A stretch of DNA of 32,000 bases from Breznakia sp. PF5-3 (GTDB taxonomy: Bacteria; Bacillota_I; Bacilli_A; Erysipelotrichales; Erysipelotrichaceae), in contig NZ_JAQFIQ010000002.1 in NCBI RefSeq assembly GCF_029504745.1, positions 30,001 to 62,000 of the forward strand, given 5' to 3'. The stretch's first letter is position 1. Every line of letters starts with the position of its first letter. The notes under the pieces are model-generated. The model did not search any database. It saw only the letters and a program-made list of their open reading frames with translations, and was not told where the DNA came from. The position numbers and the translations under genes are program-made. Positions 665 to 31,285 of the stretch are shown in pieces.

Positions 665-1618
665 ATGTTTACATTAGATAGAGAAAATAAAGAGATTAAA
701 GAATTAAAGTTAGCAGTTGTTGAAACCCTTCAAGATATGATGAAAACAAATGATAAAGTTGTTGCTCTTGAAGCCGATTTAGGTGGAGCTAGTGGGTTTT
801 CAAAAATTCAAAAAACAAATCCTGATCGTTTTATAAATGTTGGGATTGCGGAAGCTAATATGGTTGGTGTTGCAGCTGGATTGAGCGTAACTGGCTTTGT
901 TCCATTTATGCATACTTTCGGACCATTTGCATCAAGACGTGTATTTGATCAAGTATTCTTATCAGGTGCTTATGCACACACAACAATGAATATTTATGGA
1001 TCAGATCCTGGATTTACAGTTGGGCCAAATGGTGGAACACATACAACATGGGAAGATGTAGCACTTATGCGTACAATTCCTAATGCAGTTGTTTGTGATG
1101 CTGCTGATTATGTTCAATTGGAATGGATTACTCGTGAATTTGTGAAAATGGAAGGAATCCATTATGTTAGAGCAAACCGTAAAGGTGTAAGAAACGTATA
1201 TAAAGAAGGTTCTACTTTTGAAATCGGAAAAGGAAATATTCTTAAAGAAGGTAAAGATGTATTATTAATTGCAGCTGGACAATTAGTGTCAGATGCATTA
1301 GATGCAGCGGAAGCACTTGAAAAAGAAGGTATTTCTGTAGAGGTTGTTGATATGTTTACTATCAAGCCTATTGATGCTGATTTGATTCTAAAAGAAGTTA
1401 CTGGTAAAAAAGCGGTTGTAACATTTGAAAACCATTCGATTACGGGAGGTTTAGGAAGTGCTGTAGCTGAAGTACTATCAGATAATGCAATTGGAGTAAA
1501 ACTAAAACGTGTAGGTGTAAATGAATTATTTGGACAAGTAGGAACACCAGATTTCCTACAAAAAGAATTTAAACTTACCGCAGATGATTTAGTAAAAGAT
1601 ATCAAAGAAGCTTTATAA
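665..1618 (+). CDS. Transketolase, C-terminal (pyrimidine-binding/C-terminal domain) subunit
   Basis: 317 aa. GIAEANMVGVAAGLS, GPNGGTHTTWEDVALMR and VTFENHSITGGLGSAVAE are characteristic of split transketolase C-subunits. SD AAGGAGGG sits about 8 nt upstream of ATG 665. Confidence 0.92.
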   Translation: MFTLDRENKEIKELKLAVVETLQDMMKTNDKVVALEADLGGASGFSKIQKTNPDRFINVGIAEANMVGVAAGLSVTGFVPFMHTFGPFASRRVFDQVFLSGAYAHTTMNIYGSDPGFTVGPNGGTHTTWEDVALMRTIPNAVVCDAADYVQLEWITREFVKMEGIHYVRANRKGVRNVYKEGSTFEIGKGNILKEGKDVLLIAAGQLVSDALDAAEALEKEGISVEVVDMFTIKPIDADLILKEVTGKKAVVTFENHSITGGLGSAVAEVLSDNAIGVKLKRVGVNELFGQVGTPDFLQKEFKLTADDLVKDIKEAL

Positions 1619-1626
1619 GAGATAAG

Positions 1627-1656
1627 CATTGTAGTGAAAACTACAGTGTTTTTTTT
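1627..1656 (+). terminator. Rho-independent terminator after the transketolase genes
   Basis: Stem CATTGTAGT (1627-1635) pairs with ACTACAGTG (1640-1648): 9 bp including one G-U. The loop is GAAA and a T8 run follows (1649-1656). Confidence 0.8.
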
Positions 1657-1676
1657 GTGGAAAAAGTGATAAAAAA

Positions 1677-1711
1677 CATAGGTTGTTACATAGGTGATGT
1701 AACAACCTATG
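1677..1711. repeat. Perfect 15-bp inverted repeat with a 5-nt spacer (operator or second hairpin/terminator)
   Basis: CATAGGTTGTTACAT (1677-1691), AGGTG, ATGTAACAACCTATG (1697-1711) are exact reverse complements. CTATTTTGT follows. The element lies between the tkt terminator and the WGR operon. Confidence 0.7.
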
Positions 1712-1831
1712 CTATTTTGTATGTAATGTCTATAAGCAAAGAAAAAATGGGAACCAAAAGAAAGTCCACAGCGTCTAAGTTTATAGATGACCTATATATG
1801 ATTATACATACTCTAGAAAGGAAAAATAAAA

Positions 1832-4800
1832 ATGTATTATTATTTAGAATTCAAAGAAGAAGGATCAAATAAGTTTTGGAAGTTAGAGTTAGAAGAGAAT
1901 AGTTATACACTTACTTATGGAAAGATAGGTAGTGCGGGTACTTCGAAAGTGAAGACATTTGAAAGTGCAGAAAAGGCTGAAAAAGATGCCATGAAATTAG
2001 TGGCTGCAAAACGCAAAAAGGGATATGTGGATGCAGAACCTGAAATGACAATGGAATTAAAAAAGAAGCCTAAAGAAACGAAAAAGGTAATTATAGAGAA
2101 ACCTGAAAAGATTCCCTTGCCTTTAAAAGATGATGACAAAATAAAAGCCTGGCATGATGAAGAGTTGGAAGAAGAATTTAAACTATCCAATATGCGTATG
2201 GGAACAAGCAAATCTTCAACAAGTCAAAAAGAAAAGAAAGAAAAAGTAGAAACTGAAGATGGGATGAAAAAGCTGGAAGATTTAATGCTTGCTCATATGA
2301 ATCATAATTTTATAAAGTCTAAAATAGATCGAGAACGGTTGTTTTTAACACTTTGCCAAAAAGGTGAATATGAAGAAGCGAAATTGGTTTATGAAATTGT
2401 AGGGTTTTCAGATAAGGTTTTAAAATCAGCAGTAAAACAGATATTTGAAAATAAAGCATCTTATACACCAACCTTACAATTAGGAAGTTTTATGCTTGTG
2501 GAATGGTTGTATGATTTACTAAATCTGCCATTTGATCAATTTTTGGCACTTATTTCTCAAAAAGATATTCATGTGGATGTTTTAGAAAAATATTATACAT
2601 GTTTAAAAGATACAAAAGCTTTTGGTGAAGCAAAAGAACAGATGTTATCAGTTGTTAAAGAACTTTGTGAAAGTAATGTTTCAATCATTGAAAATACGAT
2701 TAAGGGTGTATGTGATTACGCTAAAAATCATACTGCATTTAATGCGAAAGATATAAATAAACTTGATCAAATAATAAAAGAACAAAAATTTGTTGAAGGA
2801 GCATATGGAATATCTATTGCATTTAAAAAGAATCATTTGTACGTGGGCGTTTTAGGGACATCTTTATCTGGATTTTCAGGTATTTATACAACTTTAAACT
2901 TACATGGTGTTTCAGTGAAGTTTTTTATTGAAATGATAAAAGAAGAACTAACAAAGGCAGTTGAAAAACTGTGGGATGATAACATTTTTGAAGGGCTTTT
3001 CCGCTATACGTGTACGATTGAAGAATGTGAAACAAAAACCGAATTGTTGTACAGAGAAATACCGTCAGAAGAAAGAGATGAATTATTAAAACGCTTAGAA
3101 CATTTAGAAATTAGTGATGATTGGGAAGAAAATATTGAATTGCTTTCTGACGTTGTAGAAGAATGTAAAGCTGGTATTTATATGAAATATGATGAGGACA
3201 GGATTGTAAGTTTAGTATCTCGATATATGAAATCACCAGATTCAAGTGTAAGTGATAGTGCTGAGAATATTATGAGTATGGAAGCGCATAAGCGTACAGC
3301 AAGCGATGCTTGGGTAGAAGCTATGGTTACTTCGTATTGTGATAGAGGACACTTCAAAGAGGCGAGATCAAGATATGTCGATAAAGCAAGGAAAAGAACG
3401 TCACCTGAAGTTACAAACAAGCTTCGTAAGCTTATTAGCTTTAGAGAGAAAAATAATCGTGCATTGATGTCTACGTCAAATAACAATGCAGTAAGTACAG
3501 AGGATATTGATAACGATTATGTTTTATTTGGTAAAGGGTCGCAAATCAAAGATACCTTTTTAGAAACAGAAAATGTTGTTGTTCGTGCAGATGAAGATGG
3601 AAGAATTATGGTTCGCTTTTTGAATGAGGGAGAAGCAGCATATAGTGAAACTTTAGATTTTGTAAATCATTTATTAAGTAAAGGATATGGCAAGATTGGG
3701 CAATATTTTTGTGTACGATTCCTTCATGAACCAATGGCAATTAAACAGGTGGGAACGCTTAAAACTTCATATGGTATAACATATCCATTTAATGATACAC
3801 ATGCCTTTTTCGCAAGAGCAGCACAATATCCTAAATTACGTTCAAAAGTGGAACGTTATGCTTATTTGGCGTTAAAAAAATATGAATGGTATCCAGATCT
3901 TGATGCTGAAGAAAACACGGTACCAGGTACTTTTGCAGCCACAGCATTAGCCTTTTGTGGGGCAGAATATATGCCGGTGGTAATTCATTATGCACATATG
4001 GTAGATGGTGATCATTCAAACCTACATGCAGTGCTTCCTAATGCACTTATTAAACATTATGGACTTATACCAGAAATTGCTCCAGCTATTTTTGCTTTAT
4101 GTATGGCAAATGGGCAAGATTATGATTATAGTATTCCAACAGATCTTTTAGCTAATAAGGAGTTTGCTAAATATATAATGCGTGATATCCACAAATGGGA
4201 GGTTGATGATAGGGAAAAGCAATCTTACTTTACTACAGCTGTAAGAACCATTCTATATAACAGTAGTTATGCAGATGATGGAGTGGAAGCTTTGAACAAG
4301 ATAAAAAAATATATCAATAATAGTGATGATATTCAAACTAGAGGTGGATTAATTGAATTTTATAATTATTATTTGGAGTGTATTAAACAGTATGATGATT
4401 ATGAAGATATAAAACCAATTATTCAACTTAAAGGATATCGTAGAGATGATAATTTGGATGAGGTAGAAAACCATATAGATGCTTCGAAACAAGTGGAATT
4501 AACGTTTGAAGAAAAAGGTGTTGTACTTATGACGATGAGTGAAGCAAAAAAAGCAAAAGTCAATTTTGATGATATGTATGAAAGAAAAGATTTGGATGCT
4601 GTTTTCTATATTAATTCAATTCAAGATGATATTGAAATTCTTGATTACTTTAATAGAACAGCAGTTGAGATAGGATATGAAAACCATACAAGAATGGGAA
4701 AACGTTGTCGTACAGTGTGGACTTGTGGAGCAGATTTTGTATCAAATGGTAAATGGGTAGTTGATACTACGCATATGGGTGCTAATGCTGCAACCATTAT

Positions 4801-5245
4801 ATTCAATGGAAAAAATAAGCCAACTATTTTATATGGATATATGAATTTTGTTGATGCGGTTATAGAGTATAAAACAACAAAACCTACAAGTGAAGAGGAA
4901 ATTGAAACATTACGATTACGGCATCTGAAAAAGCAAGCAACACCTCGAAAATATGATAGCGAATACAAAGAAGCGGAAGAGCTTTTAGATGAGTTGATGT
5001 ATTGCATTATCTATGGGACATTTCCTGCCGCAGACTATAAGATACAACAGTTAGAAGCGAATGATAATTGTTATGTTGAAATGGTGAGGAAGGTTGCTAA
5101 GATTCAAGTGCTGCAACGTGGAGGACGCATTGAAGGCTATGAAGCGTTGTGTGATGAATTATCAAAAATGCAAAGTGATAAGCGTGATTTTTGGCTTGCC
5201 AAGAAAGCTATCGCAAAAACTTTGCAAAAAAATAATATATTATAG
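1832..5245 (+). CDS. Large WGR-domain protein (1137 aa); function unknown beyond the N-terminal WGR domain
   Basis: The first ~68 aa carry the WGR signature (YLEF.EEGSNKFWKLEL...YTLTYGKIGSAGTSKVKTF...KLVAAKRKKGY). A K/E-rich linker follows (aa ~70-160), then a long region that looks mostly helical with no motif I recognise. SD AAAGGA lies 9 nt upstream. The 3.4-kb ORF is uninterrupted. Confidence 0.85.
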   Translation: MYYYLEFKEEGSNKFWKLELEENSYTLTYGKIGSAGTSKVKTFESAEKAEKDAMKLVAAKRKKGYVDAEPEMTMELKKKPKETKKVIIEKPEKIPLPLKDDDKIKAWHDEELEEEFKLSNMRMGTSKSSTSQKEKKEKVETEDGMKKLEDLMLAHMNHNFIKSKIDRERLFLTLCQKGEYEEAKLVYEIVGFSDKVLKSAVKQIFENKASYTPTLQLGSFMLVEWLYDLLNLPFDQFLALISQKDIHVDVLEKYYTCLKDTKAFGEAKEQMLSVVKELCESNVSIIENTIKGVCDYAKNHTAFNAKDINKLDQIIKEQKFVEGAYGISIAFKKNHLYVGVLGTSLSGFSGIYTTLNLHGVSVKFFIEMIKEELTKAVEKLWDDNIFEGLFRYTCTIEECETKTELLYREIPSEERDELLKRLEHLEISDDWEENIELLSDVVEECKAGIYMKYDEDRIVSLVSRYMKSPDSSVSDSAENIMSMEAHKRTASDAWVEAMVTSYCDRGHFKEARSRYVDKARKRTSPEVTNKLRKLISFREKNNRALMSTSNNNAVSTEDIDNDYVLFGKGSQIKDTFLETENVVVRADEDGRIMVRFLNEGEAAYSETLDFVNHLLSKGYGKIGQYFCVRFLHEPMAIKQVGTLKTSYGITYPFNDTHAFFARAAQYPKLRSKVERYAYLALKKYEWYPDLDAEENTVPGTFAATALAFCGAEYMPVVIHYAHMVDGDHSNLHAVLPNALIKHYGLIPEIAPAIFALCMANGQDYDYSIPTDLLANKEFAKYIMRDIHKWEVDDREKQSYFTTAVRTILYNSSYADDGVEALNKIKKYINNSDDIQTRGGLIEFYNYYLECIKQYDDYEDIKPIIQLKGYRRDDNLDEVENHIDASKQVELTFEEKGVVLMTMSEAKKAKVNFDDMYERKDLDAVFYINSIQDDIEILDYFNRTAVEIGYENHTRMGKRCRTVWTCGADFVSNGKWVVDTTHMGANAATIIFNGKNKPTILYGYMNFVDAVIEYKTTKPTSEEEIETLRLRHLKKQATPRKYDSEYKEAEELLDELMYCIIYGTFPAADYKIQQLEANDNCYVEMVRKVAKIQVLQRGGRIEGYEALCDELSKMQSDKRDFWLAKKAIAKTLQKNNIL

Positions 5246-5261
5246 AAAGGACGAGTGAAGG

Positions 5262-8144
5262 ATGAAATATTATTTAGAATCTAGAGAAGAAGGAGCGAAT
5301 AAGTTTTGGAAGTTAGAATTAAAAGGAGATAGCTATACGGTTACTTATGGAAAGTTAGGTAGTGTAGGTACATCTAAGACAAAGGCATTTGATAGTGAAG
5401 AAGCAGCGCAAAAGGCAGCTGAAAAAATGGTAGCAACAAAACGTAAAAATGGATATGAAGATGCTAAAGAATTAAATACAGAGTCACCAACGACAACAAT
5501 AGATGATTTTATGAATGAGTTGATTCCTTTTCTTGAAGAAATGGAAGTGGAATTACAAGAGAAATTTTGGAAGTTTTATGAAGAATCAGGAAAAAGCGAT
5601 TATCATCTTCAATATCATGATGTAACATGGACAGGATTTATTAATAGACTGACAATTACGATTCAGAGCAGTAAAGATAAAAAACGAATACGAAACTATC
5701 TTGAATTTGGTACAGATGAAAAATGGTCATCTTCTATAATGAAGGATTTCTCTGAATTTTATATGCATATTCTAACAGAAGAGAATTTAAAAAACGTCAT
5801 TGGTCCTAAAATTATGGCTTGGTTCCAAGAGCGGATTGATAACGAGAAATTTAATGGTTTCTATAGTGCATATTTGATTGTTACTGTACGTATGTTTGGT
5901 GAAGAAAGCGGATATTATGGAGGGGAAGTTCCTTTAGTAGCAGAAGCAAGAAGAAAGCAAGTTAGAGAGTATGTTGGAAAATGTATTGAAACAAAAGATT
6001 ATAGTGAGTGGAAAAGAATGAAAGATAATCCAGCACACTGGGAATTTTTATGGCTATGGAAAGAAATGGACATAAAGAATCTTAAAGTGTATTTTGAACG
6101 TATTAAAAACTCAGATGGCGGTAGTTCAGGGTTATATTATTCATATCCTAGTCACAAATGGCAATTGGAAGAATTCTATGAATCATTATTAGATGATTCC
6201 ACAATAACATTAGAAGATTGTGAAAAGCTATATTTCTTTAATGAAGAAATAAAAAAGTTTGTTTTTGGATCAAGAGCTACTTGGGATTTTCCATTGGTAA
6301 AGGATGAAGAGTTTATTCCTATTACCAAGCTTTATAAAAAGTTAGGTTTTAATCCTAAAGATGTTATTACTGAAGTAGAGATAAAAGATGTTCCTTTTGC
6401 TGAAGCGGTTTATAATATAATAAGTGAAAATCATGAAATGTATGCAAGTGAATATGTTCGTGAAAGAGAAGATGTCTTTAAAACCAGTCGTCGAACAAAA
6501 GATAAGCCACTTCCAAATTGGAGTAAGGATGGTAAGGCGATAGCATTTATTGAGATTAGCGTATCAGAGAAAAAGGTATACGTGAAAGAAAGGGCATATA
6601 ATTGGTCTTATCATGTAAGTCACCGTGGAGAACAATTTAAGTTTTCTGCAGACTTTGAAAAAGAATATGATCTTGAAGCGGTAAGTGAAGAAGAAAAAAC
6701 AAACTTATTTCATTCGCTTGTAACATATTATCAACCCTTGGTTGAAGAGAATGAAGGAGATTTGTATTTGCCGATTGTAAATATTACACTACTTGTTGGT
6801 GAGCAAGATGAATCTGAAAGTTATTGGGAGAAAGCAAAATACACACAAAACATTCTTAGAGATAACAGTGAAGAGTGGATAGAAACGCTTCAAAAGATGC
6901 ATGATAGTATGATAGAACCTGAGGGGGAAAGAGTACAACCATATTCGAATATGTTAGAGGTGTTCAAATCTATTTATATTAATATCTTTGATTATGATTG
7001 GGCACGTATGTTGTTGTTTATGAAGCAATATGCTACAACCCAATATGGAGTTCATTTTGGTGATTCTATGTTAGGCAGTATGGCACATCATTTAGAAAGA
7101 GAAATGAAAAGATTGTTGGAGCGTAAAGGAATAGCTAATTTAAGGAAAAAAATTACAGCTTCTTTTACACCTGAAGATGTAGATTATATTGCGTTTGCGG
7201 CAGATATGATTAAAAATAATTTAACTGCATCTTATCAAAAGAGCTCTCAGAAATTTGCCGCAATGTTGGAAAAATTGTTGGAGAAAATAGAAGTTGTAGA
7301 AGAGGAAACATACGAAGAAACTACGTATGAAATTGATCAAGAAGAAGAGATGGATGAAGAAGATGTATTCAGCACATACAAAGATGAATTTGTAGAATTA
7401 AAGGCTGCATATAATGAAGATGGTCGTGAAGATTATTTTGAAGAAGGATTTAATAATCGAGGATATGTTAAATGTGTTATTTTAAAAGAAGAAGAACAAG
7501 CTTATAAAACCGCAATTGAATATTTTATTCAAATTATCAAAGATGGATTCCCAGCTCGTTTCAGTTTTGAACTAACTTCTAGTGTTGATGAATATACGCT
7601 TATTTATGAACGTCCTTCTGATGAAAATCCGATATTAAAAGTTGATAGTAATCGCTTCTTTACAGCAGCATTAAAATATCCTGAATTGCGTGATCTTGTT
7701 CGTGAGTATGTAAAGGTTTCAGCTGAAAATATCAATGTTTTAGAGGAATCCGAGATGGAAGATGATGATTCCATTATTGGAAGAAGGCCAGATTTCTTGG
7801 CTATGGCGATACTAGTGTTGAGTGATCCAAGTGGATATGATTTTCTAACAACGTTTGATGACTTTAATGGTTCAGTATATTATGATCAAGGTTATAATGG
7901 TTGTCATGTATTGGTGACTACATTCCTTCGTCAATGTGGAATTAATGATGATAACGTAAAGAATGTGGCAGAATCTATCGACGAAGAAAAAGCAGGATGG
8001 TTTTTAATTGATATGCTTCAGGATTGGGGTTACAAAGATGCGAAATTTGCCAAAGAGAATGCGACTAAATTATTAGCACATGTTGAAGATGATGCAAAAG
8101 AAATGTTAGAGGAAATATTAGAAGACTTAGAAGATGAGGAATAA
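5262..8144 (+). CDS. Large WGR-domain protein (960 aa), paralogue of the upstream gene; function unknown
   Basis: The N-terminal 68 aa are 46/68 identical to the upstream protein by hand count (YLESREEGANKFWKLEL...YTVTYGKLGSVGTSKTKAF...KRKNGY). A second shared module surrounds FFTAALKYPELRDLVREY (compare FFARAAQYPKLRSKVERY upstream). An acidic stretch lies at aa ~672-705 and the C-terminus is acidic. The gap to the upstream gene is 16 nt, with SD AAAGGA. Confidence 0.85.
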   Translation: MKYYLESREEGANKFWKLELKGDSYTVTYGKLGSVGTSKTKAFDSEEAAQKAAEKMVATKRKNGYEDAKELNTESPTTTIDDFMNELIPFLEEMEVELQEKFWKFYEESGKSDYHLQYHDVTWTGFINRLTITIQSSKDKKRIRNYLEFGTDEKWSSSIMKDFSEFYMHILTEENLKNVIGPKIMAWFQERIDNEKFNGFYSAYLIVTVRMFGEESGYYGGEVPLVAEARRKQVREYVGKCIETKDYSEWKRMKDNPAHWEFLWLWKEMDIKNLKVYFERIKNSDGGSSGLYYSYPSHKWQLEEFYESLLDDSTITLEDCEKLYFFNEEIKKFVFGSRATWDFPLVKDEEFIPITKLYKKLGFNPKDVITEVEIKDVPFAEAVYNIISENHEMYASEYVREREDVFKTSRRTKDKPLPNWSKDGKAIAFIEISVSEKKVYVKERAYNWSYHVSHRGEQFKFSADFEKEYDLEAVSEEEKTNLFHSLVTYYQPLVEENEGDLYLPIVNITLLVGEQDESESYWEKAKYTQNILRDNSEEWIETLQKMHDSMIEPEGERVQPYSNMLEVFKSIYINIFDYDWARMLLFMKQYATTQYGVHFGDSMLGSMAHHLEREMKRLLERKGIANLRKKITASFTPEDVDYIAFAADMIKNNLTASYQKSSQKFAAMLEKLLEKIEVVEEETYEETTYEIDQEEEMDEEDVFSTYKDEFVELKAAYNEDGREDYFEEGFNNRGYVKCVILKEEEQAYKTAIEYFIQIIKDGFPARFSFELTSSVDEYTLIYERPSDENPILKVDSNRFFTAALKYPELRDLVREYVKVSAENINVLEESEMEDDDSIIGRRPDFLAMAILVLSDPSGYDFLTTFDDFNGSVYYDQGYNGCHVLVTTFLRQCGINDDNVKNVAESIDEEKAGWFLIDMLQDWGYKDAKFAKENATKLLAHVEDDAKEMLEEILEDLEDEE

Positions 8145-8162
8145 AGTCCTATAATTAGATAA

Positions 8163-8197
8163 GAGTACGATAGTGAAAACTATGGTGCTCTTTTTTT
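8163..8197 (+). terminator. Rho-independent terminator after the WGR pair
   Basis: GAGTACGATAGT (8163-8174) pairs with ACTATGGTGCTC (8179-8190): 12 positions with one mismatch and one G-U. The loop is GAAA and a T7 run follows (8191-8197). Confidence 0.75.
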
Positions 8198-8227
8198 GAA
8201 TGAAAATGATAGATTTATTTTTATTTG

Positions 8228-9114: not shown

Positions 9115-9855
9115 GTGAAACCTGCAAAAAAAGCAATTGAAATGAGTCAAAAGGAATTGGCTCGCTATATTGATCAATCAGTATTAAAACCTGAATTTAC
9201 TGTTGAAGAAGCGAAAAAATATATCCAAGAAGGAATTGATTATGGATGTGCAACAGTATGTGTAAATCCTGTAAATGTTGAAACGGCAGCGAAAATGTGT
9301 AAAGGAACGGATACAAAAGTTTGTCCAGTTTGTGACTTCCCATTTGGAACAAGTACTACAGAATCTAAAGTAGCACAAGCAGAACTTATTTTAAGTAAGT
9401 TTGCGGATGATATTTTAGAGTTGGATATTGTATCTAACTTTGGTTGGATTCGCAGTGGAATGTGGGATGAAGTAACAGCAGACATTAAAGCGGTAGCAGA
9501 TGTTTGTCATAAATATAATGTTGAAATGAAAGTTATCTTCGAAACAGATGCGTTGACAATGGATGAAGTTAAAAAAGCTTGTGAATGTGCTGTTGAAGCT
9601 GGGGCTGATTTTGTGAAAACAAGCACAGGGTTCTTGACTGGACATGATGCACAAGGAGCAAGTGTTGAAGTTATCAAAGTAATGTTTGATGCAGTTGATG
9701 GTAAAGCAAAAGTAAAAGGAAGTGGATGTATTCGTACAAGAGAGCATTTCCTTCAACTAATTGATATGGGGATTGACCGTATGGGTATTGGTTATCGTTC
9801 AACACCAGTTGTTTTAGGTGTCGATGGGAGTAAAGAGACAAAAGACGTTTATTAA
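9115..9855 (+). CDS. DeoC/DERA-family class I aldolase (deoxyribose-phosphate aldolase-like)
   Basis: 246 aa with a GTG start behind a strong SD. Motifs are YIDQSVLKP, ATVCVNP, CDFPFGTS, MKVIFET and the Schiff-base lysine context ADFVKTSTGF, all typical of the DeoC family. Confidence 0.85.
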   Translation: MKPAKKAIEMSQKELARYIDQSVLKPEFTVEEAKKYIQEGIDYGCATVCVNPVNVETAAKMCKGTDTKVCPVCDFPFGTSTTESKVAQAELILSKFADDILELDIVSNFGWIRSGMWDEVTADIKAVADVCHKYNVEMKVIFETDALTMDEVKKACECAVEAGADFVKTSTGFLTGHDAQGASVEVIKVMFDAVDGKAKVKGSGCIRTREHFLQLIDMGIDRMGIGYRSTPVVLGVDGSKETKDVY

Positions 9856-9877
9856 AAGTGCAGGTATGCACTTTTTT
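9854..9877 (+). terminator. Rho-independent terminator/attenuator between the aldolase and GRE genes
   Basis: AAAAGTGCA (9854-9862), loop GGTA, TGCACTTTT (9867-9875), with the T-run continuing to 9877. It starts within the stop codon. Confidence 0.65.
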
Positions 9878-9892
9878 AACAAGGCAAATAGA

Positions 9893-9921
9893 TTGCTAGT
9901 TTTAGAATAACTATATAGAAT
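9893..9921 (+). promoter_or_regulatory. Candidate sigma-A promoter of the glycyl-radical enzyme gene
   Basis: TTGCTA (9893-9898), a 17-nt spacer, then TAGAAT (9916-9921). The spacer contains AGTTTTAGAAT (9898-9908), a 10/11 match to the repeats at 9022 and 9042. Confidence 0.55.
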
Positions 9922-9950
9922 TAAGATGAGAGATAGTGGAGATTTGACTT

Positions 9951-12368
9951 ATGAAAAAAATGTTAGAGTACCAAGTTAAAAGTGATTGTATTGATGAAGC
10001 AAGAATTGCTCGGTTGCAACATAAAATGGAAAAGCGAAAAGCGTCTATTTGTAGTGAACGTGCTTTGTTGTATACAGAAAGTTTTCAAAAAAGTGAAACA
10101 GAACCTTATATTATTCGTAAGGCGAAAGCATTTGCACATACATTGGACCTTATGAGTATCTATATAGAAGAAGATAGTTTGATTTTTGGGAATCAAGCTT
10201 CTCGAAACTTTGCAGCACCAATTTTTCCAGAATATTCTATTGATTGGGTAATTGATGAATTGGATGCGTTTGCTTTACGTAAAGGTGATGTCTTTACCAT
10301 TGATGAGCAAACAAAAAAGGATTTACGGAGTATTCATGATTATTGGCATTCTCATACTCATGAAGACGAAGTGAAGAAGAATTTGCCTGAAGAAAATTTC
10401 TTGGCTGAAAAGCAAGGTGTATTACATCGTGGTGGTATCTCGATGAGTGGAGATGGGCATATTGTGCCTAAGCACGAAAAAGTCTTAGAAGTTGGCTTTT
10501 TGGGATTGATTGAAGAAGCTCAAACAAAGCTTGAAGTTTGTAAAGATAAAGAGAAAATAGCATTTTATAATGCTGTAATTATTACTTTGAACGCTTCTTT
10601 ACGTTGGATTAAACGTTATGGATTGTTAGCTGTGGATATGGCGAAAACATGTAATGATGAGAAACGTAAAGCGGAACTCTATAAGATTGCAGATATGTGT
10701 GAACATTTGTTGGAACGAAAAGCTAATGGTTTTTATGAAGCTGTAGAATCTGTATATTTGATACATGTCTTACAAATGATTGAAAGCAACGGGCATTCCT
10801 TTTGTTATGGTAGATTTGACCAATATATTTATCCATTTTATGAAGCTGACGTAGCAAGTGGTAAGTTAAATGATGATAAAGCATTGGAACTTATTACGCA
10901 TATGTTTTTAATGAATAGTTCATTAAATAAAGTTCGTCCATATGGACATACAAAGTTTTCACAAGGGTATCCATTATATTCGAATTTGATGATTGGTGGA
11001 TATCGTCGTGATGGAAAAGATGGAACTAATGCATTATCTTATTTGGCAATAGAAGCTATGAATTTAACTTCTTTAGCAGAACCAAATTTCTCTATGCGTT
11101 ACAATAATGACACACCAGATGACTTGCTTCGTTTAGCAGCGAAATTGATTCGTACGGGGTGTGGAATGCCAAGTATGTTTAATGATGAAGTGATTGTTAA
11201 AGCCAAAGAAGGACTTGGTATACCACATGAAGATGCTTTAGATTATGTAGCAATAGGTTGTGTAGAGACTGGAATTCCTGGTAAATACGGACATCGAGCA
11301 ACGGGTATGACCTATGTAAACTGGGGAAAAGTATTAGAAATTTTATTAAACAATGGCTATGATCCTGATTCAAAGTTGCGTTTAATTACCTTAGGTAATG
11401 AGAAAGAGACAATGGAGTCTTGCTTTGAAACCTATGATGATGTATGGACAGGTTGGAAGAAATTATTAAAATATTACACCGATTTAGCAGTTGCGTGTGA
11501 TCATGTTTGTGATCAATCATTAGCAAAATATGACGCTGATCCGTTTGCCTCTAGCCTAATTGATGATTGCTTAGAAAAAGGAAAAATTCTTAAATTAGGT
11601 GGTGCGAAATATGATATTGTATCACAATCTAATATAGGACCTAGTGTGGTTGGAAATTCTTTAGCAGTTCTTAAAAAGCTGGTCTTTGAAGAAAAGAAAA
11701 TAACATTACAAGCATTGAAAGATGCAATGAAAGATAATTGGGAATCGTTAGAATCAAAACGTATTCACCAAATGGTTACTCAAGTAGCAAAATTTGGTAA
11801 TGATGAGGATTATGTAGATGATATTGTTATTGATGTTTTCAATTCATATTTAGAACTTTTACCTGATTATAAGACGAATTGTTCAGATATGGGACCAGAT
11901 ATTAGTGGATACACTATGTCAACGTCCAATATCACATCTTATGTACCAAATGGTTTAGATGTCGGTGCCACACCAGATGGCAGATTTGCTAGAAGTCCAT
12001 TGAATGAAGGATGTTCACCAACGGAGGGAACAGATATAAAAGGACCTACGGCGGTTATTAATTCAGTGGCTAAATTGCCAAATGAAAGAATTGCAGCAGG
12101 TCAGCTATTGAATATGCGTTTTACACCAGAATCTTTAGAAGGCGCTAATTTAGAAAAGTTTATTGCCTTTTTAAAGGTGAGTAGGAAAAAAGAAATATAT
12201 CATAATCAATTTAATATCATCGATTCAACAACGTTACGCAAAGCGCAACAAAATCCTGAGAAGTATACAGATTTGATTGTACGTGTAGCAGGGTATTGCG
12301 CACAGTTTGTTTCATTGATGAGTGAAACACAAGATGCAATTATTAATCGCAGTGAAAATAGTATTTAG
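9951..12368 (+). CDS. Glycyl-radical enzyme, PFL2/dehydratase (eliminase)-type
   Basis: 805 aa. The C-terminal glycyl-radical fingerprint is LIVRVAGYCAQF (Gly781, nt 12291-12293). The thiyl-loop is IGCVETG with Cys437 and Glu439 (nt 11259-11267). The N-terminus (ICSERALLYTESFQKSETEPYIIRKAKAFAHTL...IFGNQAS) is typical of the PFL2/glycerol-dehydratase-like clade. Confidence 0.92.
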   Translation: MKKMLEYQVKSDCIDEARIARLQHKMEKRKASICSERALLYTESFQKSETEPYIIRKAKAFAHTLDLMSIYIEEDSLIFGNQASRNFAAPIFPEYSIDWVIDELDAFALRKGDVFTIDEQTKKDLRSIHDYWHSHTHEDEVKKNLPEENFLAEKQGVLHRGGISMSGDGHIVPKHEKVLEVGFLGLIEEAQTKLEVCKDKEKIAFYNAVIITLNASLRWIKRYGLLAVDMAKTCNDEKRKAELYKIADMCEHLLERKANGFYEAVESVYLIHVLQMIESNGHSFCYGRFDQYIYPFYEADVASGKLNDDKALELITHMFLMNSSLNKVRPYGHTKFSQGYPLYSNLMIGGYRRDGKDGTNALSYLAIEAMNLTSLAEPNFSMRYNNDTPDDLLRLAAKLIRTGCGMPSMFNDEVIVKAKEGLGIPHEDALDYVAIGCVETGIPGKYGHRATGMTYVNWGKVLEILLNNGYDPDSKLRLITLGNEKETMESCFETYDDVWTGWKKLLKYYTDLAVACDHVCDQSLAKYDADPFASSLIDDCLEKGKILKLGGAKYDIVSQSNIGPSVVGNSLAVLKKLVFEEKKITLQALKDAMKDNWESLESKRIHQMVTQVAKFGNDEDYVDDIVIDVFNSYLELLPDYKTNCSDMGPDISGYTMSTSNITSYVPNGLDVGATPDGRFARSPLNEGCSPTEGTDIKGPTAVINSVAKLPNERIAAGQLLNMRFTPESLEGANLEKFIAFLKVSRKKEIYHNQFNIIDSTTLRKAQQNPEKYTDLIVRVAGYCAQFVSLMSETQDAIINRSENSI

Positions 12369-13923: not shown

Positions 13924-14484
13924 ATGAATAATCAAGAGTATGGAAAGCTGGTAGTAGACGAATTATCGCAAACACTTGGTAGCATTTCTGTTGCTGCAGC
14001 AGAAAAGTTTGTTTCACTTATAAATGAAGCTGGTGAAGTGTTTTGTGCAGGTGCAGGGAGAAGTGGCTTTCAAGTAAAAGGATTTGCAATGCGTTTAATG
14101 CACATGGGATTTAAAAGTTATGTTGTTGGAGAAACGGTAACCCCAAATATCAAAGCAGATGGATTGCTTGTGATTTGTAGTGGTTCTGGGGAAACAAAAT
14201 CATTGGTAAATCATGCTCAAAAGGCAAAAGAGATGGGAGCAAAAATTGCTTTGATTACCACAAATGTAGATTCTTCTATTGGTAATATTGCTGATGTGGT
14301 AATTGAAATCAATACAGCATCGCCAAAGGTGGCGAAAGAAGATCAAATTATTTCACGTCAACCTATGGCATCATTATTTGAACAATCAGAAGGTATCTTT
14401 TTGGATGTTGCAATTATGATGTTAATGGACCTTCGTGGGATGGATGCCGTTACGATGTATGGCAGACATGCCAATATGGAATAG
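13924..14484 (+). CDS. hxlB: 6-phospho-3-hexuloisomerase (SIS domain)
   Basis: 186 aa. SIS motifs are VFCAGAGRSGF and LLVICSGSGETKS. The PHI-type C-terminus is QPMASLFEQS...RHANME. Confidence 0.82.
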   Translation: MNNQEYGKLVVDELSQTLGSISVAAAEKFVSLINEAGEVFCAGAGRSGFQVKGFAMRLMHMGFKSYVVGETVTPNIKADGLLVICSGSGETKSLVNHAQKAKEMGAKIALITTNVDSSIGNIADVVIEINTASPKVAKEDQIISRQPMASLFEQSEGIFLDVAIMMLMDLRGMDAVTMYGRHANME

Positions 14485-14488
14485 TGTT

Positions 14489-15433
14489 ATGGAAAAGAAA
14501 ATATTGAAAATATTTCCTTTCTTTGAACCTCGAATGTGGGGTGGGAAAAGGATGTTAGAGAATTTCAATTATCAGAGTGATATTTATCCAGTTGGAGAAG
14601 TATACAATGTTGTAGCATTAAAAAATCATGCTGATTGTTTAGTAAAAGATACGTGTATGACGCTTTCAGATTTATATATTACATATCCAGAATGGTTTAA
14701 ATGTGATACAAATGAGTTACCTATTCGAGTTAATATTTTAGATCCAGAAGCAGATTTATCAATTCAGCTTCATCCAGATGATGCCTTTGCACGCTCTTAT
14801 AATGGAGGCCGTGGAAAACCAGAGGCTTGGGTTATTTTGGATGCTCCAGAAGATGGATATATTGCGTTTGGACATACAGCAAAGACACGAGATGAGTTTG
14901 AACAAAAAGTTGGAAATAAAGAATTTGATTCGTTGATTAAGTATATTGATGTAGTTGTAGATGATTATATTGATATTCCTTGTGGTACGATTCATGCAAT
15001 TGGAAAAGATGTATTGACGTATAATATCTCTCGTAATGCAGATTGTACACTACGGGTTTATGATTATGATCGTCTTGACCCAGCAACGGGTAAGACAAGA
15101 GATCTACAAGTAGAAGAAGTTATTAAAAATGTAAACATTCCTGATAAGTCAAAAGGGTTTGTTCATTATCCTGAAATAGAACAAGATGGTTGTCTTGTAA
15201 CATCGTATTGGGATGAACCAGGATTGTATACATTGAAACGTATTCGTGTCAAAGAACATGGATATCATCAACATCAAAGGTTTGCTTTTTATACGATTGT
15301 AGAAGGTGAAGCAAAAATTAATGATGTAGTAGTAAGAAAAGGAGAAACTATATTTGTGCCAGATCAATTTGGGCTTCTTGAAATTACAGGTGATGTAGAT
15401 ATGTTTATGGCAAGTTACGAAAATAGCAAGTAG
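14489..15433 (+). CDS. manA: Class I mannose-6-phosphate isomerase (paralogue 1)
   Basis: The Firmicute ~315-aa PMI pattern is present: FEPRMWGG, LSIQLHP, KPEAWVILDA, GTIHAIG, RVYDYDR. I moved the start from track 8 codons... from track 14435 to ATG 14489 (MEKKILKIFP...), which begins 5 nt after the PHI stop; the longer form overlaps the PHI gene. Confidence 0.85.
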   Translation: MEKKILKIFPFFEPRMWGGKRMLENFNYQSDIYPVGEVYNVVALKNHADCLVKDTCMTLSDLYITYPEWFKCDTNELPIRVNILDPEADLSIQLHPDDAFARSYNGGRGKPEAWVILDAPEDGYIAFGHTAKTRDEFEQKVGNKEFDSLIKYIDVVVDDYIDIPCGTIHAIGKDVLTYNISRNADCTLRVYDYDRLDPATGKTRDLQVEEVIKNVNIPDKSKGFVHYPEIEQDGCLVTSYWDEPGLYTLKRIRVKEHGYHQHQRFAFYTIVEGEAKINDVVVRKGETIFVPDQFGLLEITGDVDMFMASYENSK

Positions 15434-25706: not shown

Positions 25707-25747
25707 AAAAACAGTTGACGCTATTTAAAATAAACAACTGTTTTTTT
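25707..25747 (+). terminator. Terminator after the transaldolase gene
   Basis: AAAAACAGTTG (25707-25717) pairs with CAACTGTTTTT (25735-25745). The loop is 17 nt and the T7 run spans 25741-25747. Confidence 0.5.
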
Positions 25748-25774
25748 ATTATCATATATATTATAATAAGAGCA

Positions 25775-26713
25775 ATGGAAGAAAATATAAAATTAGCGAA
25801 TATTACTGTTTATTATAATCAAACAACAGTCCAAGAATTGATAAATAAGGGCTATTCTTTTACGATGAAAGAAGTAGAATATCATCAAGACTCAAAAACT
25901 TTAATGTGTGGTTTTTATAAAGATAATATGTATTATGGAGAATTGGTGTTTTATGATATACCTCATCATTTCACAAGGAAAGATATTTTGAAATATAAAA
26001 TACAACTTATATTATTGGAAGAAAAGCCAAAACAAAAATATACAAAAGTATTAAAAGAAGATATGAGCTTTTTAGGATTTATGGAATTTAAAGGGAAGCA
26101 AGGAAAAAATGATATTAAACTTCTTCTAGTCTTTTATTCAATTGTATTACTTTTAGGTTTTATCTTTGGTGATTCAATTCCCCAAGAATTAAAAATCGTT
26201 ACTTTGATTTTGCCATTCGCATTCTTTGGTTTAGCATTTGTATTTTGGGTTGTGAAATTAATTTTTTGGAAAGTCTTTCAATCGTTTTCTAAAAAAACAG
26301 CTTTTGGAATACTCTTTTTATCTATTTTTTTATGGTTTTTAATATTTGCCAATATTATTGATTATTTGCGAAATCAAAATACAGATTCATGGATACTCGT
26401 TATAGTGATGGCATTAGGTGTATTGGCAGTTCCAACTTTTGGTATCTATCAAGGGATGAAATTTTTATTTCATAAAGTGATATCCATGAAGAAAAAAGAA
26501 ATGATAATGTATGTTATCATACCACATGGCTTGCTATATAGTTTAGTATATCTTTATATTGCTTATTTTCGCGAATCTACTTTGTATCCACAAAATCAAA
26601 CGCTACTACTATTATATGAAATTTCTGTTTTAATTTATTGCATGTTTTCATTAAGAGCTTTTTTGAATTGTATTTTAGCTCTGACACTTTTCAAAAAAAA
26701 GCCTATTAAATAG
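25775..26713 (+). CDS. Polytopic membrane protein with a ~130-aa soluble N-terminal domain; unknown function; start uncertain
   Basis: Several clearly hydrophobic helices lie in the C-terminal two-thirds (LLLVFYSIVLLLGFIF, IVTLILPFAFFGLAFVFWVV, FGILFLSIFLWFLIFANII, ILVIVMALGVLAVPTFGI...). The track start 25715 (TTG) lies inside the upstream terminator, so I chose ATG 25775. That start has no convincing SD. Confidence 0.5.
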   Translation: MEENIKLANITVYYNQTTVQELINKGYSFTMKEVEYHQDSKTLMCGFYKDNMYYGELVFYDIPHHFTRKDILKYKIQLILLEEKPKQKYTKVLKEDMSFLGFMEFKGKQGKNDIKLLLVFYSIVLLLGFIFGDSIPQELKIVTLILPFAFFGLAFVFWVVKLIFWKVFQSFSKKTAFGILFLSIFLWFLIFANIIDYLRNQNTDSWILVIVMALGVLAVPTFGIYQGMKFLFHKVISMKKKEMIMYVIIPHGLLYSLVYLYIAYFRESTLYPQNQTLLLLYEISVLIYCMFSLRAFLNCILALTLFKKKPIK

Positions 26714-28988: not shown

Positions 28989-29546
28989 ATGGAAATATTT
29001 GATCCTAGAGTTCAACATGATTTTGTGAATGGAATTGTCGAAGGAAAAGATGTGAAAATTAGCAAAAAATATTATCGTGATGCAAAACATTTCTATCTTA
29101 ATCCAGATGCTTCTTTAGCTGATGATACCCTTATGTATCAAGTGTATTCTTATAGTGAGGGAAACAGTGAGCAAGTAGGTAATCTTAATTGGGGATTGAC
29201 TGTATTAAAACCTGTTTCTGTGAATCAAGAATGCAATATGACACGTGGTCATTTTCATGAAAATTTGGATTGTGCAGAGTTTTATTTTGGCTTAGGTGGA
29301 GAAGGATTGTTATTGATGATGAAAGAAGATGGCACTTGTTTTGCGGAAAAAGTGTTTTTAAATTCACTGCATCACATTGATGGTAGTGTAGCTCATCGTT
29401 TAATCAATACAGGAAATGAAGATTTAAAGGTGGGAGCTTGTTGGCCAACGATTGCAGGGCATGATTATGAACGAATTGAAAAACATCCATTTGGTGCCAG
29501 AGTTTTTAAAAAAGATGATGAATTAGTCATAGAGGAGGATAAATAA
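28989..29546 (+). CDS. Cupin-type glucose-6-phosphate isomerase family protein
   Basis: 185 aa. GNLNWGLTVLKP...MTRGHFHE...AEFYFGLGGEGLLLM resembles the metal site and beta-barrel of archaeal/Firmicute cupin PGIs. SD GGAGG lies upstream. Confidence 0.75.
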   Translation: MEIFDPRVQHDFVNGIVEGKDVKISKKYYRDAKHFYLNPDASLADDTLMYQVYSYSEGNSEQVGNLNWGLTVLKPVSVNQECNMTRGHFHENLDCAEFYFGLGGEGLLLMMKEDGTCFAEKVFLNSLHHIDGSVAHRLINTGNEDLKVGACWPTIAGHDYERIEKHPFGARVFKKDDELVIEEDK

Positions 29547-31285
29547 TGGCTTATTTGAATTTTAAATCAAAGTATGATAAATATCCTAGTACAAAAGTAG
29601 AAGGACATCATGCAATACAAGGATATGATGCAATATTAGAAGCATTAAAAACAAAGATAAACAAAGAAGATTTTATTCTTTGTGTGGATACTTATCCTGG
29701 TGTTGATGATACGGAAGTATTGGAACAATTGAAAAAATTAAATCCAGATACCTTGATTGAAACAATTGATATTTTTAAAGATAGTTCTACAATCAATGAG
29801 CAAATTAAATATCAAATGACAGATGATCGCGTATTTGGAAATATGTATAATGGAAAAGTAACCGATTTTATTGATGAAGAAAGATTAAAAGAAGCAACAG
29901 CAAAAGCTTCATCGGCAAAGGGATTAACTATTATTTATGGGTTTGGAGCATTTCTTGTGCAAAACCCAGATTTAGCTGTATATTTGGATATGGCTCGTTG
30001 GGAGATTCAAGCTCGTTTACGTGCAGGTGGTGGAAACTATAAAGCAGGTAATGAGGCAGAAGATGCATTGCGTAAATTTAAACGTGGTTATTTCTTTGAA
30101 TGGCGTATTGCAGATAAGCATAAAATGCAATATATCAAAAAAGTAGATTACTTTATCGATACAAATAAAGCAAATGATCCAAAGATGATCAGTGGAGATG
30201 CATTCCAAAAAGCATTAGATATGATTGTAACAAAACCATTTCGAACAGTTCCTTACTTTGATCCAGGAGTATGGGGTGGTCAATGGATGAAGGAAGTATG
30301 TAACCTTGATACAAGTAAAGCAAATTATGCATGGAGTTTTGATGGCGTTCCAGAAGAGAATAGTGTTTTATTTGATTTTGATGGAACAGTACTAGAATTT
30401 CCAGCGATGGATGTTGTTTTATCAAGACCAAAAGAATTGTTGGGACCTCAAGTATATGCAAGATTTGGAGCCGAATTTCCAATTCGTTTTGACTTCTTAG
30501 ATACAATGGAAGGACAAAATCTTTCATTGCAAGTGCACCCACTAACAGAGTACGCAAAGAAACAATTTGGAATTAGTTATACACAAGATGAAAGCTATTA
30601 TATTTTGGATGCAGTTGAAGGAGCTAAGGTATATCTTGGGCTAAAAGAAAATATTAATCCAGATACGATGATTGACGAATTGCGTCAAGCAAACAAAGGT
30701 GAAATTGTATTTGATGCTGAAAAGTATATTAATACCTTTGAAGTGAAAAAGCACGATCACTATTTAATTCCAGCAGGAACTTGTCATTGTAGTGCTACAG
30801 GAACAATGGTATTAGAAATTAGTGCTACACCATATATTTTCACTTTCAAATTATGGGATTGGGAAAGATTAGGTCTTGATGGATTGCCTAGACCAGTACA
30901 TATTGAACATGGAAAAGAAGTAATTCAGTGGGATCGTACAACCCCATGGGTAGAAAAAAACTTAGTAAACAACTTTTATGATGTTGATGAAGATTGTGGA
31001 TGTCGTGTAGAACATACGGGATTACATGAGTTGGAATTTATTGAAACTAGAAGATATACAATAGATAAAAATTCAAAGCATAGTACCAATAATACAGTAA
31101 ATATGCTAAACTTAATTGACGGAAAAGAAGCAATTGTAGAAAGTGTAAATGGAGAATTTGAACCATTTGTTGTACATTATGCAGAAACATTTATCATTCC
31201 TGCAAATGTAAAAGAATATACGATTCGTCCCTATGGGTTAAGTGAAAACGAGGAAATTAAAGTTATTAAAGCATATGTAAGGTAG
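29546..31285 (+). CDS. Long (579 aa) class I mannose-6-phosphate isomerase-like protein with a ~235-aa N-terminal extension
   Basis: The C-terminal ~340 aa carry PMI motifs (PGVWGGQWM, LSLQVHP, QDESYYILDA, GTCHCSA, FKLWDWER). I do not recognise the N-terminal 235 aa. The start overlaps the PGI stop (TAATG), with AGAGGAGGA upstream. Confidence 0.8.
   Translation: MAYLNFKSKYDKYPSTKVEGHHAIQGYDAILEALKTKINKEDFILCVDTYPGVDDTEVLEQLKKLNPDTLIETIDIFKDSSTINEQIKYQMTDDRVFGNMYNGKVTDFIDEERLKEATAKASSAKGLTIIYGFGAFLVQNPDLAVYLDMARWEIQARLRAGGGNYKAGNEAEDALRKFKRGYFFEWRIADKHKMQYIKKVDYFIDTNKANDPKMISGDAFQKALDMIVTKPFRTVPYFDPGVWGGQWMKEVCNLDTSKANYAWSFDGVPEENSVLFDFDGTVLEFPAMDVVLSRPKELLGPQVYARFGAEFPIRFDFLDTMEGQNLSLQVHPLTEYAKKQFGISYTQDESYYILDAVEGAKVYLGLKENINPDTMIDELRQANKGEIVFDAEKYINTFEVKKHDHYLIPAGTCHCSATGTMVLEISATPYIFTFKLWDWERLGLDGLPRPVHIEHGKEVIQWDRTTPWVEKNLVNNFYDVDEDCGCRVEHTGLHELEFIETRRYTIDKNSKHSTNNTVNMLNLIDGKEAIVESVNGEFEPFVVHYAETFIIPANVKEYTIRPYGLSENEEIKVIKAYVR

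Follow-up and report, generated by a model that had tools for sequence, protein, structure and literature searches.

What role could two very large WGR-domain proteins, encoded side by side, play in the midst of genes for sugar metabolism? The question is raised by a 32,000-nucleotide stretch of the Breznakia sp. PF5-3 genome (Erysipelotrichaceae; NCBI RefSeq assembly GCF_029504745.1, contig NZ_JAQFIQ010000002.1, positions 30,001 to 62,000; hereafter the window), in which two genes on the + strand, separated by 16 nt, encode the proteins that we call P1 and P2. A first-pass annotation of the same DNA had read them as a two-component sensor/effector system. We find instead that P1 and P2 are strongly diverged tandem paralogues of one rare family, which is defined by its DUF6138 body, and that a conflict-type role for them is plausible. 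Databases already list both under the names 'DUF6138 family' and 'WGR domain' proteins, though neither is characterised: each is 100% identical to an NCBI entry from this genome, the one for P1 being labelled 'putative DNA-binding WGR domain protein [Breznakia sp. PF5-3]', and no mention of DUF6138 was found in the literature searched. The locus is not a demonstrated new system, and its interest lies in the distribution of the family and in a core without a solved structural relative.

P1 and P2 belong to the DUF6138 family

The two genes and the regions of their products, in window coordinates, are as follows.

1832..5245, + strand: P1, 1137 aa, WGR-DUF6138 protein of the 'long' subfamily
1832..2041, + strand: P1 WGR domain, aa 1-70 (PF05406, 65.2 bits over aa 3-69)
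2042..2692, + strand: P1 linker and helical region; K/E-rich disordered aa 71-160, then lineage-specific helical aa 161-287
2693..4309, + strand: P1 complete DUF6138 module, aa 288-826
3542..4111, + strand: most conserved core, P1 aa 571-760; beta-beta-beta-alpha-beta unit, then helical repeats (conservation 0.45-0.52)
4319..5242, + strand: P1 C-terminal extension, aa 830-1137, confined to the long subfamily; alpha/beta domain, then TPR-like helices
5262..8144, + strand: P2, 960 aa, divergent WGR-DUF6138 paralogue of P1
5262..5471, + strand: P2 WGR domain, aa 1-70 (PF05406, 62.1 bits)
5535..5996, + strand: P2 DUF6138 N-terminal part, aa ~92-245 (Pfam profile positions 6-158 of 551, E 2.3e-6 in a sub-segment search; also found with our own profile)
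6129..7391, + strand: P2 orphan middle region, aa ~290-710, ~420 aa, for which no homologue was detected
7467..7961, + strand: P2 DUF6138 core, aa ~736-900 (Pfam)

A shared module of about 200 aa had been noticed in the first reading. It is real and corresponds to DUF6138, but its extent had been under-estimated, the module spanning aa 288-800 in P1 and recurring at aa 92-245 in P2. Residues 288-800 of P1 align with positions 7-525 of 556 in a hidden Markov model (HMM) built from 38 canonical DUF6138 members (E 8e-50), and aa 579-797 match the Pfam profile PF19635 with 106.9 bits (gathering cut-off 25 bits). P2 scores 62.6 bits against PF19635 (aa 736-829 and a second stretch), its coverage of the profile being partial (Pfam positions 6-158 and 324-411). 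The P2 core retains E743, E745, Y748, F800, A803, Y806, L809, G840, A847 and H882, as judged from alignment columns; the counterparts of R585/A586 are gone, as are those of D725 (N in P2) and D/E727 (C in P2). The orphan region between the two DUF6138 parts of P2 could be either an expansion or a partial duplication of the N-terminal part; aa 468-821 give a weak second match to positions 79-407 of our own HMM. P2 is very acidic (net charge -75, with an acidic tail after the core), and P1 carries a net charge of -31. A word-index search with P2 (13 matches) returned no close homologue but P2 itself and none beyond the WGR head outside this species, such searches being near-blind for these proteins (1, 13 and 9 matches). 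The WGR domain and the DUF6138 parts are all that P1 and P2 have in common.

The WGR heads of the two proteins, whose scores compare with a gathering cut-off of 22 bits, are identical at 46 of 68 residues (68%, BLASTP), exactly the number that had been counted by hand. In the full-length AlphaFold model of P1 (predicted local distance difference test, pLDDT, 83.2) the head comprises strands at residues 2-7, 14-21, 24-31 and 37-42 and a helix at 46-62 (pLDDT ~86-94), which together are the four-stranded sheet and helix of the WGR fold. It can be superposed in Foldseek onto the WGR domain of PDB entry 2ra8 (E 4e-4, root-mean-square deviation 3.1 Å over 77 columns, 42% identity), and the same entry is matched in a search of PDB sequences (E 1.5e-11). 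The W-G-R motif itself is replaced by T-Y-G-K-(I/L)-G in both P1 and P2, and the family consensus at this position is G-K-x-G.

The K/E-rich linker that had been described in P1 is predicted to be disordered over aa ~71-160, with pLDDT below 50 at aa 72-87 and 126-140 and a family conservation of ~0.15, and no homologue of aa 151-420 was found among the homologue loci surveyed below. One segment of this region, aa 91-120 (window ~2102-2191; PLPLKDDDKIKAW), follows the family consensus P....DDG....W with a conservation of 0.31 and a pLDDT of 82-89, and the hhalign match to other WGR families runs ~15 residues past the Pfam WGR boundary. Because the segment is conserved and well modelled, and because the match extends past that boundary, we suggest that it is a conserved post-WGR docking element. 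At the other end of P1, the C-terminal extension is conserved in the ~30 long homologues and has no match in Pfam or the PDB; its alpha/beta domain (aa ~899-1034, secondary structure from the model) carries the motif FNGKNKPTILYG.

A motif scan of P1 and P2 revealed no Walker A sequence, classical nuclease motif, signal peptide or secretion domain, and the maximal 19-aa hydropathy (1.45 in P1, 1.18 in P2) indicates no transmembrane segment, in agreement with what had been judged by eye for Walker A, nuclease motifs and membrane segments. As they have neither signal peptide nor transmembrane segment, both proteins are predicted to be cytoplasmic.

A rare family in which the WGR head is optional

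With P1 minus its WGR head as the query, 1.84 billion representative proteins were searched exhaustively in HMMER, and 158 matched at E<=1e-3. About 30 of them are long members of 0.9-1.16 kaa that align over P1 ~270-1130, and about 100 are canonical members of ~550 aa that match only P1 ~570-800. DUF6138 is present in all 29 members that were aligned; a WGR head is found in 18 of these and missing from 11, and a single member has a SWIM domain in its own sequence. What defines the family is therefore DUF6138, the WGR head being optional.

When one genome was scanned for each GTDB species, the long subfamily was located at 11 loci in 10 genomes. The named carriers are Elusimicrobium posterum, Breznakiella homolactica, Dysgonomonas sp. 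521 and Frischella japonica; those known as metagenome-assembled genomes (MAGs) are two Synergistaceae, two Spirochaetia, one Bacteroidia and one Acidaminococcales. All 11 loci belong to taxa that are insect-gut isolates or their relatives, the habitats of the MAGs being inferred from names only. F. japonica has Apis cerana as its source (PMC8375426), Breznakia species are isolates from insect guts (PMC7671988), and the reference list of PMC13067680 places Breznakiella in a cockroach/termite spirochete lineage. Canonical DUF6138 proteins are found in free-living genera, as in Chitinophaga nivalis (WP_264732504) and Saccharibacillus alkalitolerans (WP_166272570).

The Acidaminococcales and Elusimicrobium homologues are 48% identical and the Synergistaceae proteins are 57% identical to the Spirochaetia/Bacteroidia group, with P1 only 24-34% identical to any other member. 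The family is rare and its distribution is patchy and crosses phyla; since similarity within it does not follow taxonomy, this pattern points to horizontal spread. The long form seems to be restricted to bacteria of the arthropod gut, from at least seven phyla, which points to niche-bound horizontal exchange. No match was found in phage genomes or IMG/VR contigs; in a plasmid collection there were just two, both weak and partial, and one of these lay in a record the size of a chromosome.

The conserved core has no detectable relative of solved structure

Across 29-60 aligned sequences, residues E599, Y604, F660, A663, L669, G699, A702 and H728 of the core (P1 numbering) are invariant, and R585, E601, D609, E693 and D725 are nearly so. 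A separate model of the core (P1 aa 565-870, from a 60-sequence alignment) reached a pLDDT of 92.1 and a predicted template modelling score of 0.90, and shows the beta-beta-beta-alpha-beta unit followed by ten helices. When this model was compared with the PDB in Foldseek, the best E value was 0.066 and the template modelling (TM) score did not exceed 0.28 among the best 50 matches listed. The full P1 model retrieved from the PDB and BFVD only WGR matches, which in BFVD include phage WGR proteins, and generic alpha-solenoid noise (TM ~0.1-0.28). The sequence profile of the core had no match among PDB sequences, and NCBIfam and PADLOC searches yielded only WGR-limited matches. As there is no sequence or fold match in the PDB, no solved structural relative of the core is detectable here, and neither P1 nor P2 has a recognisable enzymatic fold. 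The topology of the beta-beta-beta-alpha-beta unit is reminiscent of PD-(D/E)xK proteins, but this assignment was rejected because the D...(D/E)xK pattern is missing and Foldseek gives it no support.

Homologues are mostly solitary and lack a conserved partner

About 23 distinct homologue loci from genomes and metagenomes were surveyed, the metagenome scan using alignment A2. In about 18 of the 23 the gene stands alone (single-gene labels L001-L009, L012, L016-L019, L021-L026). At L020, two adjacent family open reading frames (ORFs) match successive parts of the core model, and because of this they are read as probably one gene split in two. When 168 neighbouring ORFs were compared all-against-all with BLAST, none proved common to independent loci. 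Pfam annotation of 150 neighbouring ORFs from the 23 loci gave 181 families, none present in more than four ORFs, the commonest being Imm11 (four ORFs) and DDE transposases (three ORFs). The family has no conserved partner gene. MoxR, vWA, SWIM and reverse transcriptase families are absent from the 25 most frequent Pfam families of these 150 ORFs and from Pfam scans of the larger ORFs of the window; nearby MoxR-ATPase, vWA or SWIM genes, which the first reading had suggested looking for, were thus not found.

Tandem copies occur in three places, namely the window (two copies), F. japonica (at least seven) and the metagenome contig L013 (four), and are best read as local paralogue expansions. 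F. japonica Ac13 contains, on two contigs, head-to-tail arrays (L010 5320-14053 and L011 2-10034) of at least seven WGR-DUF6138 paralogues with 61-78% identity. At L013 339-11078, four consecutive DUF6138 genes encode proteins of 841, 580, 561 and 1025 aa, all of which lack the WGR head. Three further details of these arrays deserve mention. One Frischella copy is a split pseudogene, divided into two ORFs (L011 4710-6122 and 6422-8017), and in the three full-length copies the N-terminal half is more divergent than the C-terminal third. The L013 array lies directly 3' of a sortase gene and a gene for a secreted 378-aa protein (signal peptide; C-terminal ALF-like HELTH/HExxH metallopeptidase motif), and rve_3 and Y1 transposase genes are found 3' of the array.

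Genes of polymorphic-toxin immunity and of mobile elements are present at some loci. At L004 the homologue is flanked by four Imm11 genes, three of them above the Pfam cut-off, and a DDE transposase gene; at L005 an Imm11 fragment lies beside it; and at L012 it follows an Imm11 gene in a region that also contains SUFU, NERD-HRDC and McrB_N-NOV_C genes. Transposase or insertion-sequence genes are near homologues at L004, L013, L016 and L018. The family genes at L003 (2631-5873), L004 (3349-6801) and L005 (1421-4891) are 95-97% identical across Spirochaetia and Bacteroidia MAGs, and the three loci share a 156-aa neighbour that is 97-99% identical and has no Pfam match. Either a very recent cross-phylum transfer on a mobile element, with the DDE transposase adjacent at L004, or mis-binned contigs could account for this.

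Two other observations concern the company that these domains keep. In two of the three metagenome loci that have a canonical ~550-aa DUF6138 gene, a gene of ~440 aa, homologous between the two (L024 5453-6778 and L025 7768-9063), lies directly 5' of it; its product has a weak C-terminal match to DUF1963 (YwqG-like; E 0.0019, below the Pfam cut-off). The metagenome protein P0003 (833 aa) has the order WGR - Imm22 (DUF4284) - Sel1 repeats - WGR - DUF1963, a fusion of WGR to a recognised polymorphic-toxin immunity domain; no such combination was found described in the papers searched.

The gene pair and its surroundings

The signals around P1 and P2 are the following.

1615..1665, + strand: terminator hairpin that follows the gene for the transketolase C subunit and is also the left one of two ~50-nt imperfect direct repeats
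1675..1713, both strands: perfect bidirectional hairpin of 15-17 bp, lying between the first terminator and P1, reported by the terminator scan on either strand
1817..1822, + strand: Shine-Dalgarno sequence AAAGGA of P1, 9 nt 5' of the ATG, read from the sequence
5246..5251, + strand: Shine-Dalgarno sequence AAAGGA of P2, within the 16 nt that follow the P1 stop codon, 9-10 nt 5' of the ATG
8155..8199, + strand: terminator after P2, a hairpin with U7, also the right copy of the flanking repeat

Gene order, gene lengths, the two AAAGGA sites, the terminators on both sides and the position of the pair, out of context between transketolase and DeoR/aldolase genes, all agree with the first reading. 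The scan placed the left terminator at 1624-1651 (fold -15.6 kcal/mol, z -5.05) and the bidirectional hairpin at 1677-1711 (-20.8 kcal/mol, z -5.76), and the hairpin downstream of P2 has a fold of -18.7 kcal/mol (z -6.71). Pfam identifies the flanking genes as a split transketolase on the upstream side and a DeoR regulator and DeoC aldolase on the other, so that the pair sits between phosphotransferase system (PTS)/transketolase and DeoR/aldolase/glycyl-radical operons. With its terminators, P1-P2 forms one transcription unit that looks like a cassette dropped between sugar operons. No recombinase gene is present in the window.

The pair is bracketed by ~50-nt imperfect direct repeats (1615-1665 and 8150-8205), identical at 35 of 51 nt, each of which is a terminator hairpin; the 12-mer TAGTGAAAACTA occurs in the window only at 1632 and 8171, with 0.36 occurrences expected by chance. 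A cassette that inserted next to the transketolase terminator may have left these repeats as its footprint; alternatively, the terminator may have been duplicated.

Among the neighbouring genes, the DeoR gene 3' of P2 (8200-9018) probably begins at 8263 (251 aa) rather than at 8200, the position of the first ATG; 8263 is the start called in two independent assemblies and leaves the P2 terminator wholly intergenic. It is followed at 9115-12368 by genes for a DeoC/LacD-type aldolase and an 805-aa PFL-like glycyl-radical enzyme, which are both placed under a DeoR regulator and adjoin a second DeoR gene, a HUMPS/OMP-decarboxylase-like gene and SIS genes. This group looks like an uncharacterised sugar-phosphate or deoxy-sugar pathway. 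Three ORFs amid the sugar genes (14435-15433, 25715-26713 and 29546-31285; 332, 332 and 579 aa) have no Pfam match at E<=1e-4.

What P1 and P2 might do

The explanation that we favour, tentatively and as a single statement, is that P1 and P2 may be stand-alone cytoplasmic conflict-type proteins in which DUF6138 binds a ligand, WGR tethers the protein to nucleic acid and duplication broadens specificity; the functional part is drawn from genomic context. Each protein would act alone, as a cytoplasmic member of an accessory 'conflict' gene pool, with stoichiometric binding or sensing as its most likely mode of action. The DUF6138 scaffold, with its invariant Glu/Glu/Tyr/Asp/His patch, would grip a protein or nucleic-acid ligand, for which an incoming DNase-type toxin or a foreign element are candidates, and the WGR head would keep the protein at DNA ends or nicks. 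Duplication followed by the divergence of P1 from P2 might broaden specificity in the manner of polyimmunity loci, and P2 would not be an 'effector' of P1. Architecture and paralogy, rarity, the optional nature of the WGR head, occurrence as solo genes or arrays, the lack of a conserved neighbour, the Imm11 and transposase contexts, the fusion seen in P0003, the likeness to polyimmunity loci, horizontal spread (with the ~50-nt repeats around the cassette) and the lack of any enzyme signal are counted in its support.

A number of observations weigh against this explanation. No homologue is characterised, and function is read from context only. Since L003, L004 and L005 hold near-identical copies of one element, the link to Imm11 comes down to just two separate contexts. 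Known immunity proteins usually have 100-250 aa, compared with about 1000 aa here. The invariant acidic and histidine residues could equally mark a cryptic catalytic site, and PADLOC-DB v2 gave no defence-protein match beyond the weak one limited to WGR. Within the window, where the neighbours are sugar genes, Pfam detects neither Imm or toxin genes nor transposase or defence genes, and the GC content is unremarkable. Look-ups of these exact proteins recovered one and the same gene order in every assembly found of this species, and no presence/absence polymorphism was seen.

An enzyme in disguise is the alternative that survives best, although we consider it unlikely. The proteins would then be single-gene defences against phages or mobile elements with a cryptic enzymatic core, the WGR domain sensing foreign or broken DNA and the E599/E601/Y604/E693/D725/H728 cluster serving as a new metal-dependent active site whose action leads to abortive infection. 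The persistence of acidic and histidine residues across 29-60 sequences, the beta-beta-beta-alpha-beta topology and the patchy distribution, which resembles that of horizontally transferred genes, would all fit, as would the NERD, McrB_N-NOV_C and ATPase_2/AAA_16 neighbours at homologue loci; the WGR-like HEAT/ARM protein of type XIII retrons offers a precedent (PMC7736814). However, the core matches no nuclease or hydrolase in fold or sequence and has no classical catalytic motif, and P2 is an intact ORF in spite of having lost D725 and E727. The PADLOC match is weak and restricted to the WGR region, phage and viral collections contain no match, and tandem paralogue arrays are unusual among defence effectors.

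A bolder generalisation would embrace either kind of conflict function. It states that the DUF6138 core is a new fold behind an unrecognised class of large single-gene cytoplasmic conflict proteins (for DNase-toxin immunity or foreign-DNA defence), whose long form is wired to a WGR DNA-end sensor, exchanged horizontally among distant arthropod-gut bacteria and diversified by tandem duplication. Taken in full, we regard this as more doubtful still.

That the proteins are factors for adaptation to the arthropod gut, for instance contacting host, protist or diet-derived molecules and exchanged among gut residents, seems improbable. It would account for the restriction of all 11 long-type genome loci to insect-gut isolates or relatives; but several MAG habitats were taken from names only, with the habitats of metagenome hits inferred likewise or unchecked, and the canonical form occurs in free-living Chitinophaga and Saccharibacillus. 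Neither protein has a signal peptide or secretion domain, and a shared habitat would equally explain the horizontal transfer of conflict genes.

We judge it highly improbable that P1 and P2 are obligate sensor and effector partners, as the first-pass annotation had proposed. Their common strand, 16-nt gap and single promoter/terminator unit are compatible with such a partnership, as are the WGR head on each protein and their difference outside the core, and L013 likewise combines a long member with shorter DUF6138 genes. Against this, about 18 of 23 loci have a single gene, array copy number varies (2, 4 and at least 7) with copies that are the same kind of protein, no effector-type domain is present in P1 or P2, and the word-index search found no P2 homologue outside this species. 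Rather than being always paired, homologues are usually unpaired and scattered without conserved context, which is essentially the pattern that had been named in advance as speaking against the proposal. With solo homologues and no conserved partner, a sensor-plus-effector reading is therefore not supported.

Least probable of all is that P1 and P2 are housekeeping proteins or DNA-binding regulators of the MolR type, controlling the sugar-phosphate operons around them through WGR. WGR has been regarded as the domain with which MolR-like transcription factors bind DNA (PMC7824862), and the genes do lie between PTS/transketolase and DeoR/aldolase/glycyl-radical operons, but homologues have no sugar-gene context, the adjacent operons have DeoR regulators of their own, 11 of 29 aligned members have no WGR domain and the pair has terminators on both sides.

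If the conflict/immunity explanation is true, the family provides a handle on the role of WGR outside PARPs and adds a new family to the interbacterial or anti-element arsenal of insect-gut communities; if it is wrong, DUF6138 is still a clean target for determining the structure of a possibly new fold.

Relation to known systems

The closest comparison is with the canonical DUF6138 proteins of ~550 aa. Residues 288-826 of P1 cover nearly the entire profile, P2 contains the N-terminal and core parts, and the same residues are invariant. P1 differs in having a WGR head, a linker/helical region and a C-terminal extension of ~300 aa, and P2 in having a WGR head and an orphan insert of ~420 aa. 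The sources differ too: free-living genera of soil type for the canonical proteins, arthropod-gut lineages for the long form.

In arrangement, P1-P2 resembles the polyimmunity loci, in which genes for distantly related paralogues follow each other in tandem, in the same orientation and with short gaps, without an intervening toxin gene and often near recombinases or transposases (PMC3482391). The 16-nt gap, common strand and distant paralogy of P1 and P2 match this description. Imm11 and SuFu, whose genes co-occur with DUF6138 homologues, are immunity families of polymorphic toxin systems, Imm11 being paired with AHH, HNH and SHH DNase toxins (PMC3482391), and P0003 illustrates that WGR can be fused to an Imm domain. 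The differences are that DUF6138 is not a described Imm family, that no cognate toxin was identified and the window is devoid of Imm or toxin genes, and that P1 and P2 are 4-10 times larger than typical immunity proteins.

As for the WGR heads, the best match in both sequence and structure is Bacteroides fragilis Q64V53 (PDB: 2ra8), a WGR and repeat protein from structural genomics; the match spans only ~77 residues, and the remainder of 2ra8 is unrelated to DUF6138. The WGR domains of PARP1-3 belong to the same Pfam family, with a weak sequence match to that of PARP3 (2eoc), but P1 and P2 have no PARP regulatory or catalytic (ART) domain by Pfam and their W-G-R reads Y-G-K.

Type XIII retrons, a defence-type system, include an accessory protein with a WGR-like domain and, at its C-terminal end, HEAT/ARM-like repeats (cluster 216_1; PMC7736814), which likewise combines a WGR-like head with a helical-repeat body of ~970 aa. 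The corresponding PADLOC profile, WGR_XIII (973 positions), matches P1 and P2 only at positions ~9-91 (E 1.1e-3 and 3.9e-4), and the reverse transcriptase, non-coding RNA and SWIM gene of these retrons are not next to P1/P2 or their homologues.

A similar layout is seen in E. coli MolR (YehH)/YehI and in WGR-DUF4132 proteins (e.g. P0004, with WGR, DUF4132 and LRR), which also have an N-terminal WGR domain of ~70 aa and a mostly helical uncharacterised body of at least ~1000 aa. The link to DUF4132 that had been suggested does not extend beyond the head. Pfam gave no PF13569 match at E<=10, with whole proteins or with ten sub-segments, and hhalign of the family profile with the WGR-DUF4132-LRR protein and with the WGR-DUF6493/DUF7824/DUF7825 family assigned 99% probability over columns 1-88, which hold WGR and a short tail, and <3% elsewhere. 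The body of the MolR/YehI type is thus unrelated to DUF6138, and its MoxR/vWA/SWIM neighbourhood is not seen for the P1/P2 family. WGR-headed bacterial giants, among them MolR/YehI, the type XIII retron accessory protein and the WGR-LRR proteins, form a recurrent and poorly understood class, and to this class the Breznakia locus adds a DUF6138 body that is unrelated to the others and whose confidently predicted core matches no solved structure.

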